Notes under the pieces: model-generated | What the model saw: only the letters and a program-made list of their open reading frames with translations | What the model was told of the DNA's origin: nothing | Databases searched by the model: none | Source: Candidatus Daviesbacteria bacterium | GTDB taxonomy: Bacteria; Patescibacteriota; Microgenomatia; Daviesbacterales; UBA10151 | Direction of reading: 5' to 3' | Length of the DNA stretch: 64,000 bases | Assembly: GCA_016186955.1 (NCBI GenBank) | Contig: JACPKP010000004.1 | Coordinates: 71,288 to 135,287, forward strand | Shown: in pieces, positions 6,332 to 30,435 of the stretch | Layout of the letters: every line of letters starts with the position of its first letter | Position numbering within the stretch: the first letter of the stretch is position 1 | Position numbers and translations under genes: made by a program

Positions 6332-7645
6332 AAGGTTGGATAGCATGTCCAGCACAGTTTTGCCAGGATTTTTAGGGTCAGGGATGGCAGCGAGGCATTT
6401 TTTGTACTGCCCCTCAATAGTTGCAGCCTGTTTTAATAATCCCGCATCTTTTAAATGTTCAAAAGTTTGAGCTGCAAAAAGCAGGTTGATGTTGCCTGAA
6501 AAATGGGGATCATCAAAAAAAGTTCCGCAGCTGGTCCTCGAAGTTAATGCTGAAACCTTAGCGCTGATCAGTGACAAACGGGGAGTGGTATGGACCCCGC
6601 CCGGGTTTTTAAAATGTTTATCAAAAGATGAGGCCATCAGCTCTATGTAGTCTTCCTGTTTTAATCCAAACTCTTTTTTGACAATTTTTGTGACAGCATC
6701 ATTTAATTTTTGATGTGATTTATAAAATGGGGCCTTCCATGATAAATCTCCCTGCCCGCAGCTGCAGACCCCCTGCCACCTGATTAAATTTCCGTGGGGA
6801 CAGCTCCAGGCAGTCCTTTCCTTAAGCCTGCCCCGCAGGGGGTTTTTGATCTCCAGATCATTTATAGGGATAGTGTTTATCCCATGGTTTGGCAGGGCGT
6901 TGTTTAATAAGTATTCTAAAAATATATCGCCAAACTTCCAGTGCCAGCCGAAAGTCTCCCCGTCTGTCCAGCCGATACAGATCTCATCTTCCTTCAGTTG
7001 ATAGGCTGTGGGGAGTATGAACTGTTTTGCAAAAACATTAGAGTTATGTTTTTCAGCAAAAGCCAGCGCACCGGAAAACCGCCTGTTAAACGGCAAAGCG
7101 AGAAGGTTTATTTTACCGGGAAGCTCCAAAAAAACAGGCTTGTTATCGCAAAAACCGCCTGATTCAAGCTCAATTTGTTCAGGCGCGCAGATTACACCCC
7201 GGTAACCGGATTTTGATAATATTGCCAGCGTCTCATTATCCAGTGCGCTCTCAGGCGCCCAAAAATATTTTGGTGTAAACCCCAAACTGTTGATCCCCGC
7301 TCCGGTTAAAATCTCCTTGTCTTCTTTTATAAGGTCAGGCAAAAGTGGATGGATAAAAGGATCACCCACACCGTTGCTGCTAATAGATTCTTGTATGACA
7401 GACAATGTTTGTCTGTCTCCTTTTTCCAGTTGCTCCCGCAAAATCCCATAACAGGTAAATGAAACTTTTTCAAGCAGGCCTTTTTTTGCCAGGGGGTGGT
7501 AACATTCCTCGGTTATAACTTCTGTCCAGTTTTTGCCTGTTTCCTGATAGTTTTGTGGGTCTGTTTTAATATGTCTTAAATTTTTATGGGAAGCTTCCCT
7601 AGGGGGTTGGTAAAGATGCAGGCCGACAGATAACTCTCTGGTCAT
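6320..7645 (-). CDS. GH57-like / DUF3536-type glycoside-hydrolase family protein (tentative)
   Basis: The N-terminal 'VGLHLYQPPRE' resembles the GH57 'HQP' motif. This 441-aa family call is uncertain. Confidence 0.4.
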   Translation of the reverse strand: MTRELSVGLHLYQPPREASHKNLRHIKTDPQNYQETGKNWTEVITEECYHPLAKKGLLEKVSFTCYGILREQLEKGDRQTLSVIQESISSNGVGDPFIHPLLPDLIKEDKEILTGAGINSLGFTPKYFWAPESALDNETLAILSKSGYRGVICAPEQIELESGGFCDNKPVFLELPGKINLLALPFNRRFSGALAFAEKHNSNVFAKQFILPTAYQLKEDEICIGWTDGETFGWHWKFGDIFLEYLLNNALPNHGINTIPINDLEIKNPLRGRLKERTAWSCPHGNLIRWQGVCSCGQGDLSWKAPFYKSHQKLNDAVTKIVKKEFGLKQEDYIELMASSFDKHFKNPGGVHTTPRLSLISAKVSALTSRTSCGTFFDDPHFSGNINLLFAAQTFEHLKDAGLLKQAATIEGQYKKCLAAIPDPKNPGKTVLDMLSNLLNQ

Positions 7646-29903: not shown

Positions 29904-29904
29904 G

Positions 29905-30340
29905 TTGGCGCCCCTGGAGGGGTTTGAAGAGGGCTGCGGGGTTTACCCCGCAGCCCACCAAGACCTTAGTCAAAACTATCGTAAGGTCCCATGTCTATGG
30001 TACGGCCGCAACACAGGCAAAGAGCCACCTGGTAGCCGAAAGTTGTGGTTATGAGTCTAGTCCTCCCACATTTCCGGCACCGTTGGTCCTGTACCTTTTC
30101 GCGGCGGGCCATTGGTTGGGTGCAGCAGCTCGTATGCCCGTAAACCAGGGTTCCCAAGAACCCCGGATCGGGCTCGTAGCGTACCTGCCCAACGTTTTCC
30201 CACTCCGGCGAGTGGTTCAGACACATGCCGTGAGGACACGGGGAGTGGGATTTCTGAACCACCTGCTTGCCATGGTCCATGGCAAACCTCCTTATTTGCT
30301 CACCCTTTTACAGGGTGACGCAGGCATTTTATAGTAAACT
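29905..30340. ncRNA. GC-rich, highly structured ~430-nt non-coding segment next to tRNA-Arg. It is a candidate structured RNA or a foreign GC-rich insert.
   Basis: GC content is very different from the flanks, and multiple perfect hairpins occur, for example 'gggctgcggggtttaccccgcagccc'. Six-frame ORFs overlap on both strands, which indicates non-coding sequence. No RNase P or tmRNA signature was recognised by eye. Confidence 0.35.
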
Positions 30341-30359
30341 TAAACAAAAAGCAAGCCTA

Positions 30360-30435
30360 TGGCGCGCCTGGAGGGAGTCGAACCCCCAACCCCGTGGTCC
30401 GAAGCCACGTGCTCTATCCATTGAGCTACAGGCGC
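30360..30435 (-). tRNA. tRNA-Arg (anticodon UCG), with encoded CCA
   Basis: The reverse complement is GCGCCTGTAGCTCAATGGATAGAGCACGTGGCTTCGGACCACGGGGTTGGGGGTTCGACTCCCTCCAGGCGCGCCA. The anticodon loop is CUUCGGA. Confidence 0.85.

Follow-up and report, generated by a model that had tools for sequence, protein, structure and literature searches.

Integrase-less islets that can be mobilised in cis have been described under the concept of the cis-mobilisable element (CIME) in streptococci, and homology-facilitated illegitimate recombination during natural transformation has been described in Acinetobacter and Streptococcus. Bacteria of the Candidate Phyla Radiation (CPR, or Patescibacteria) have tiny genomes with few recognised mobile elements, and they commonly keep genes for DNA uptake. 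A full and a partial transfer RNA (tRNA) gene flanking foreign DNA, with degenerate material beside the tRNA, is a hallmark of tRNA-targeting integrative elements (10.1101/2020.12.28.424599), and in the insertion sequence IS200 a stem-loop sequesters the Shine–Dalgarno (SD) sequence and blocks 30S binding (PMC4513863). Here we analyse a GC-rich, hairpin-dense unit of about 430 nt that adjoins a tRNA-Arg(TCG) gene in a 64-kb stretch of a Candidatus Daviesbacteria metagenome-assembled genome (MAG; contig JACPKP010000004.1), and refer to that whole stretch of 64,000 nt as the window. The best explanation, which we hold to be quite probably correct, is that the unit is a self-contained, horizontally acquired minus-strand cassette that was inserted at the 3′ end of this tRNA gene.

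Coding capacity and expression signals of the unit

Base composition switches abruptly at the unit, with a GC content of 0.55 over positions 29904-30359 against 0.40 for the window, and a scan of the 64 kb in segments of 315 nt reached a GC of at least 0.55 nowhere else. Against dinucleotide shuffles, the predicted fold of the segment is more stable on either strand (z = -6.85 for the minus strand, -4.82 for the plus). The anomaly of composition and folding is real and well beyond chance, and the true extent of the unit is 29906-30359, slightly more than the 29905-30340 assigned to it in an earlier sequence-only reading of the window. That reading had rightly placed the GC switch, the tRNA-Arg gene (30360-30435, minus strand) and, on the far side of the unit from it, the stop codon of a GH18 gene (29903).

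It had also called the segment non-coding, whereas one of its overlapping open reading frames (ORFs), on the minus strand at 29966-30280 (104 codons plus stop, ATG at 30280), is a conserved gene for a small, Cys/His-rich product. That this ORF encodes a protein is close to certain, since it has a start codon with a ribosome-binding site, homologues that are conserved at the protein level across divergent DNA, and a codon-position bias. Differences per site amount to 0.26, 0.22 and 0.41 at codon positions 1, 2 and 3, all indels in the DNA alignment are multiples of 3, and the GC content of homologous genes follows the host (about 0.40 in locus L001, 0.55 in L004) with the protein preserved. Among 5.8 billion proteins searched, three distinct relatives were 46-58% identical to the product; 36 positions are invariant, including C15, H17, C20, H23, PEW, C52, C53, RCxKCGR and ALCLCCGR. 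A profile search of 1.84 billion cluster representatives then gave a family of 162 members at E <= 1e-3, counted as clusters at 50% identity, 101 of them at E <= 1e-10; in an alignment of 97 sequences C68 and C88 are invariant, and C20, H23, C53, M57, C71 and C91 are at least 90% conserved. The product belongs to a large, undescribed family of small zinc-ribbon proteins that is almost confined to CPR. The exact 104-aa sequence is on record only in Logan gene calls and is absent from the NCBI proteins, which do include the GH18 protein encoded next to it in this MAG (a comparison of protein sets). Neither a plus-strand 136-aa ORF nor the other overlapping ORFs matched Pfam; the homologue search covered the minus-strand 104-aa ORF only.

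By conservation and model, the C-terminal part of the product holds a C4 zinc ribbon at C68, C71, C88 and C91, in keeping with the two CxxC knuckles on beta-hairpins, spaced by about 15-20 residues, that define such ribbons, and conservation points to a second probable metal site at C20, H23 and C53. With the 97-sequence alignment AlphaFold2 gave an all-beta model at a predicted local distance difference test (pLDDT) score of 86.7, with strands beside both knuckles; an alignment of four sequences gave 52.6, too poor for use. We consider that the product is most likely a mildly basic, all-beta protein that would hold two zinc ions and bind nucleic acid or a partner protein. The predicted fold found no match in the PDB, the N-terminal CxHGxCLxHxPEWENxG region with its long beta-hairpin found none in family or structure searches, and Pfam, NCBIfam, PHROGs and PADLOC, searched with the protein and with family members, returned weak generic zinc-ribbon matches only.

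Three more specific assignments of the product were considered and rejected. The ribbon is weakly similar to those of uS14 type Z and eL43 (for uS14, E = 0.002 over 31 residues and an hhalign probability of 51% over 33 columns), but uS14 type Z scores 17 and 15.9 bits in NCBIfam, where the cut-offs are 54 and 77, and the match is limited to those 33 columns. An HNH-like reading ([DN]HxP..N, CxxCG..DH..N..LCxxC), considered by eye, was dropped for three reasons: the motifs are spaced too tightly, the window protein does not conserve their residues, and a beta-beta-alpha arrangement is absent from the model. A minimal insertion sequence of the IS200/IS605 type would call for an HUH/Y1 transposase and several copies per genome, and there is no match to Y1_Tnp or another transposase and a single copy in the window. 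Among distant members of the family, five (P0094, P0109, P0115, P0146 and P0147) continue past the zinc-ribbon domain into a hydrophobic C-terminal tail of 50-70 residues, which by eye resembles two transmembrane helices, and part of the family may thus be membrane-anchored; in the longer members, a search for fusions found no informative Pfam domain, just such hydrophobic tails.

The gene is enclosed by control elements whose layout, from promoter to terminator, is common to the window copy and 15 homologous cassettes in alignment. A sigma-70-like promoter read from the sequence, TTGCTT-17 nt-TAAAAT (30326-30354, minus strand), lines up with the TTGACT...TGTATTATA promoter region that those 15 cassettes have in common; a consensus promoter scan missed it because its -35 hexamer matches at 3 of 6 positions only. 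It is followed on the same strand by a 5′ mRNA hairpin in the minimum-free-energy fold (TCACCC, 7-nt loop, GGGTGA; 30299-30319), by the SD sequence AAGGAGG (30287-30293, 6 nt before the ATG), where GAAAGGAGGA is near-invariant in the family as the ribosome-binding site, and by an 8-bp hairpin at the start codon (UUGCCAUG-GAC-CAUGGCAA; 30267-30285). Beyond the ORF stands a terminator stem-loop with a perfect 12-bp stem (29931-29956, minus strand), which, like the start-codon hairpin, was obtained by folding and repeat search. All three hairpins of the sequence-only reading are present where it placed them: gccatggtccatggc is the start-codon hairpin and gggctgcggggtttaccccgcagccc the terminator, but cccctggagggg is no independent hairpin, being a piece of the tRNA-end copy described below.

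These helices are maintained in the family. The start-codon hairpin is kept in 16/16 aligned cassettes with compensatory double changes in 5/12 pairs, and position -3 of the 5′ untranslated region (UTR) changes in concert with the middle base of codon 4 (a Ser, Asn or Gly codon), which argues for selection on the RNA helix itself. The terminator helix is 98.4% paired, with compensatory changes in 7/12 pairs; its U-tract is shortened to UCUUC in the window copy, at the junction with the tRNA remnant, where homologues carry a U-run. In the 5′ hairpin 94.6% of cells are paired and changes are one-sided only. Taken together, the three helices are 96.1% paired, and both members have changed in 12 pairs, a number that drops to 4.5 +/- 1.4 in 500 shuffles and to 2-4 with slid partners. 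By analogy with the IS200 stem-loop, the start-codon helix would limit translation initiation, and we infer that it throttles translation of the cassette mRNA.

The sequence-only reading had favoured RNase P RNA, tmRNA or another large non-coding RNA (ncRNA), an idea to which a GC-rich segment in an AT-rich genome, adjoining a tRNA gene and strongly folding in prediction, lends itself. The Rfam search it proposed came back empty: cmscan with Rfam 15 at the gathering score matched nothing in the segment, both matches being tRNAs, and up to E = 10 nothing credible appeared over 29904-30359, the best scores (16.8 and 15.5 bits) both falling on the terminator hairpin. ARAGORN found no tmRNA, and 12 homologous loci gave tRNAs alone at the gathering score. 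Covariation, which it had also put forward as a check, is present in the three local hairpins and absent as a global structure: the RNAalifold consensus of 16 homologous copies consists of these hairpins, with neither long-range nor intra-ORF helices, and the covariation term makes up -3.4 of -69.9 kcal/mol. A known large structured ncRNA (RNase P RNA, tmRNA, 6S, SRP or another Rfam class) is contradicted by the absence of both an Rfam match and a global fold, and a novel one by the kept reading frame, the in-frame indels, the third-position excess and the restriction of structure to three local hairpins. Given the protein-level conservation, we see next to no chance that the segment is a large structured RNA of an established or a new class. 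Nor is there support for a large member of a palindromic element family, a fallback of the same reading, as the hairpins of the segment have no other copies in the window: the terminator palindrome has no second copy there at up to 3 mismatches, and no family of similar close inverted repeats was found there.

A transcript with two functions, an mRNA whose structured body doubles as a regulatory or structural RNA, is very unlikely. It would accommodate the window transcript's z of -6.85 and the values of -2.8 to -4.8 that homologous transcripts reach against shuffles, as well as synonymous sites that are more conserved in the cassette than in neighbouring genes. The low folding energy of the homologous transcripts is, however, largely accounted for by local hairpins; the consensus fold comprises the 5′, start-codon and terminator hairpins with no conserved helices in the ORF body and the small covariation term given above, Rfam holds no match, and in L001 and L005, two members of low GC, the protein is retained but not the sequence.

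The tRNA-Arg boundary and its repeat

The tRNA-Arg(TCG) gene (30360-30435, minus strand; ARAGORN, with an Rfam tRNA score of 68.7 bits) has an encoded CCA, and a consensus scan placed a promoter-like site for it at 30485-30457 (minus strand). Its last 23 nt (TGGCGCGCCTGGAGGGAGTCGAA, 30360-30382, minus strand) constitute one copy of a direct repeat (family D1), similar to the attL of an integrated element, where att denotes an attachment site. The other, attR-like copy (TGGCGCCCCTGGAGGGGTTTGAA, 29906-29928, minus strand) is a remnant of the tRNA 3′ end that extends from the T loop to the CCA (TTCAAACCCCTCCAGGGGCGCCA) and ends 2 nt from the GH18 stop codon. The copies agree at 19/23 positions, with 454 nt between their starts; allowing one mismatch at most, the 16-mer core of the repeat occurs at these two places only in 64 kb and in 0/100 shuffles. 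The cassette fills the space between the repeats exactly, from a -35 hexamer that begins 5 nt past the CCA to a U-run that ends at the remnant. The locus thus has two features expected of a tRNA-targeted element, an atypical base composition and, at its far edge, a direct repeat of the tRNA 3′ end, and insertion at the tRNA 3′ end with an att-like duplication is probable.

At acceptor position 70 the remnant has a G for a C, which would break the acceptor stem of the present tRNA. The same difference is found in the tRNA-Arg(TCG) of a Daviesbacteria relative, L031 (acceptor end ..AGGGGCGCA), which has no cassette behind it, and this one relative suggests that the remnant may be the displaced original tRNA end.

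Several other loci bear on this kind of boundary. The relative L031 (2050-2973) has tRNA-Lys(CTT) and tRNA-Arg(TCG) near a SurA-like gene, as in the window, with the tRNA-Arg inverted and, 5 nt past it, the end of a convergent 114-aa gene (DUF192-like in a related contig); the neighbourhood is rearranged between Daviesbacteria relatives. A separate assembly of this locus, from the population of the window (L067, 2509-2520; run SRR12113422), ends 11 nt past the GH18 stop, within the tRNA-end remnant, for which the repeat alone or population heterogeneity at the junction may account. At L004 (1-200) the contig begins within a tRNA (Rfam, 33.9 bits). Some 75 nt past it comes a degenerate copy of its half from anticodon loop to 3′ end, with a 16-nt hairpin insert in the T arm, and the zinc-ribbon cassette lies about 150 nt beyond that copy, which has the look of a footprint left by an earlier integration at a comparable site. 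At L013 (7165-7393), tRNA-Arg(CCG) at 7165-7239 has a perfect 18-nt copy of its 3′ end (GATTCCTGCCGAGCGCAC, 7376-7393) 137 nt later, an att-like repeat that sits about 1.1 kb downstream of the cassette there.

Movement between genomes and accounts of origin

The ORF is foreign in composition to its surroundings, with a GC content of 0.565 against 0.402 +/- 0.030 for 36 host ORFs (z = 5.4) and a GC content at third codon positions of 0.657 against 0.384 +/- 0.056 in the same set (z = 4.9). To place it among its relatives we used loci gathered with two narrow peptide patterns, 18 in Patescibacteria MAGs and 33 in metagenomes; a scan of viral contigs with these patterns found no relatives. A same-strand tRNA gene occurs within 450 nt upstream of 16/33 distinct cassettes, compared with 11/187 background ORFs of the same loci. 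In these 16 the tRNA gene ends 79-421 nt upstream of the cassette, and the tRNA species number 8 (Arg-TCG, Arg-GCG, Gly-CCC, Lys-TTT, Leu-CAA, Leu-GAG, Leu-TAA and Phe-GAA). Cassette genes have a GC content of 0.53-0.59 in hosts of 0.35-0.52, and between loci with flanks that cannot be aligned, cassettes share 75-84% nucleotide identity across 500-770 nt of coding and non-coding sequence.

The strongest contrast comes from L010 (2653-6411) and L017 (223-3915), two loci of different MAGs that both read dnaK-dnaJ-tRNA-Lys(TTT)-cassette. Here the cassettes are 83% identical and the dnaK genes 69%, and divergence at four-fold sites is 0.33 for the cassette ORF against 0.70 for dnaK and 0.68 for dnaJ; between L014, where the cassette lies at tRNA-Phe, and L017 it falls to 0.20. 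Such low four-fold-site divergence relative to dnaK and dnaJ indicates that the cassette moved between genomes and tRNA sites after the hosts had diverged, and the L010/L017 contrast implies that it was replaced or re-acquired at the same site. Protein identity in these pairs is about 78%, and the protein is therefore fast-evolving outside its Cys/His scaffold. We conclude that the cassette was very probably acquired horizontally. A foreign GC-rich insert had been another fallback of the sequence-only reading, and it is the one that the atypical composition, the tRNA-end repeat and homologues that sit at other tRNAs and diverge less than their flanks have borne out.

Cassettes of the main (Paceibacteria-type) group have extra conserved non-coding blocks, namely an upstream intrinsic terminator and the repeats TTGCCGCCAAAGAAAAACTTGAAATTGTC... 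and TTTTTRAT..TGAATTCAT, which the window copy lacks. These blocks flank units as direct repeats of 16-49 nt (L015, 5738-5786/6398-6445; L009, 2278-2293/2967-2982; L021, 5863-5882/6361-6380) and may be att sites, target duplications or an unrelated repeat family.

Several observations weigh against acquisition by insertion at the tRNA. No integrase or transposase was found in the unit, which has one 104-aa ORF, and none is enriched among 145 neighbour ORFs of 36 loci, the neighbours of the family being housekeeping genes such as those for DnaK/J, ParB, RelA/SpoT and MurJ; having no recombinase of its own, the unit would be no more than a remnant or a cassette mobilised in trans. Only the window copy carries the tRNA-end repeat, which 15 other tRNA-adjacent cassettes lack, its 4 mismatches mean that the event was not recent, and the left edge of the shared DNA varies relative to the tRNA end among loci, which fits poorly with a precise site-specific event. 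Among relatives reached through the neighbouring GH18 (<=61% aa identity) and SurA-like (<=57%) genes no true empty site was found, because synteny is gone in those relatives, at 55-61% aa identity; L031 does have a tRNA-Arg(TCG) with no cassette, but in a rearranged context. The cassette gene has one copy in the window and each recovered locus comes from a different MAG or contig, the sample of loci is phylogenetically non-independent as well as drawn from two narrow patterns, and high GC recurs in many members of the family, so that selection on composition or structure could contribute.

Much of this would suit a native, vertically inherited small gene, whose GC content and hairpins reflect protein or mRNA constraint, whose repeat is a local duplication or chance, and whose closeness to tRNAs follows from the few permissive intergenic sites of dense CPR genomes. 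Such a gene would be expected in single copy, among housekeeping neighbours with no recombinase and with no empty site to be found; its GC content is indeed high across many hosts, and in the pairs L010/L017 and L012/L034 the cassette adjoins one and the same tRNA in both loci, which is what vertical descent would give. We nevertheless regard this account as unlikely. It leaves unexplained why the cassette diverges by 0.20-0.33 at four-fold sites, far under the 0.68-0.70 of dnaK and dnaJ, why promoter and terminator DNA is conserved between classes where flanks do not align, and why near-identical cassettes occur at different tRNAs. The existence of ameliorated low-GC members (L001, about 0.39; L023, 0.48) means that high GC is not required, and the 16-mer repeat core never arose in shuffles.

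Were the unit instead an autonomous miniature element, with the zinc-ribbon protein itself as the recombinase or targeting factor that inserts a 450-700-nt unit beside tRNAs in the manner of IS200, the horizontal exchange, the change of tRNA site and the lack of any other linked recombinase would all follow. Its size is near that of IS200, the main-group layout of an upstream terminator followed by a translation-blocking hairpin at a single small ORF is IS200-like (PMC4513863), and direct repeats flank some copies (49 nt in L015, 16 nt in L009, 20 nt in L021). The protein, however, falls into no transposase or recombinase family and lacks HUH/Y1 and DDE features, its predicted fold matches nothing, there is one copy per sampled genome, element ends are inconstant between loci, and a membrane anchor, seen by eye in some distant members, would be odd in a recombinase; we judge this account to be less likely again than a native gene. 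A broader version, in which the cassette is a new minimal mobile unit of CPR, a single-gene, integrase-less stretch of 450-700 nt that colonises tRNA 3′ flanks and crosses classes, is about as improbable as the native gene. The fast-evolving two-zinc protein of such a unit would either serve to insert or maintain the unit itself, by targeting, as a small recombinase of a new type or through addiction, or play a part in genetic conflict.

We thus favour a horizontally acquired cassette that recombination at the tRNA-Arg 3′ end would have placed there, with duplication of the tRNA end, by one of two routes. In one, an att x att event of the tyrosine-integrase type would have been catalysed in trans and the rest of the element then lost; in the other, illegitimate recombination facilitated by homology would have been anchored on the tRNA. 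Either route would yield the duplication, and we hold them to be about equally likely.

Relation to known systems

This work mends an annotation gap, a 104-aa product missing from the NCBI protein set of its MAG, and defines a sizeable undescribed family of small CPR proteins with a confident yet unmatched fold. A literature search found no described CPR zinc-ribbon gene linked to tRNAs. The family travels as a complete promoter-to-terminator cassette that is exchanged among distant CPR lineages and favours tRNA flanks with no linked integrase, and because so few mobile elements are recognised in these tiny genomes, a recurrent mini-cassette of this kind provides a handle on gene exchange in CPR. 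For genome scanning, the lesson is that a GC-rich, hairpin-dense stretch beside a tRNA can be a foreign small gene whose hairpins are ordinary control elements of an mRNA.

At the protein level the nearest comparison is with zinc-ribbon proteins of the C(P)XCG type, such as uS14 type Z, eL43 and Rpo12, a type that also includes haloarchaeal zinc-finger micro-proteins such as HVO_2753. The product shares with them two CxxCG knuckles (RCxKCGR ... LCxCCG) that make a C4 ribbon, but the similarity stops at the ribbon and scores stay well under the family cut-offs (17 bits against 54).

In its expression control the cassette resembles IS200 (PMC4513863) as a compact unit of a few hundred nucleotides with one small ORF and a stem-loop that occludes the translation start, and main-group cassettes add an upstream terminator that would block read-in transcription. 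It differs in that its protein is no HUH/Y1 transposase, its hairpin lies over the AUG rather than the SD sequence, the window copy has no upstream terminator and there is no sign of multiple cassette copies.

As to how it arrived, homology-facilitated illegitimate recombination offers a parallel, in that a conserved anchor, here the tRNA gene, would let foreign DNA in with no integrase, but this process alone predicts no clean 23-nt duplication from the T loop. Integrase-less remnants and islets at tRNAs, such as the degenerate tycheposon material beside Prochlorococcus tRNAs (10.1101/2020.12.28.424599), are another. The cassette differs from them in being 454 nt long with a single small gene and no known cognate integrase, in carrying the same cargo to 8 tRNA species and in having the tRNA-end repeat in the window copy only, and it shares with them a position at the tRNA 3′ end, bounds formed by a full and a partial tRNA, a foreign composition and a cargo that comes with no recombination module.

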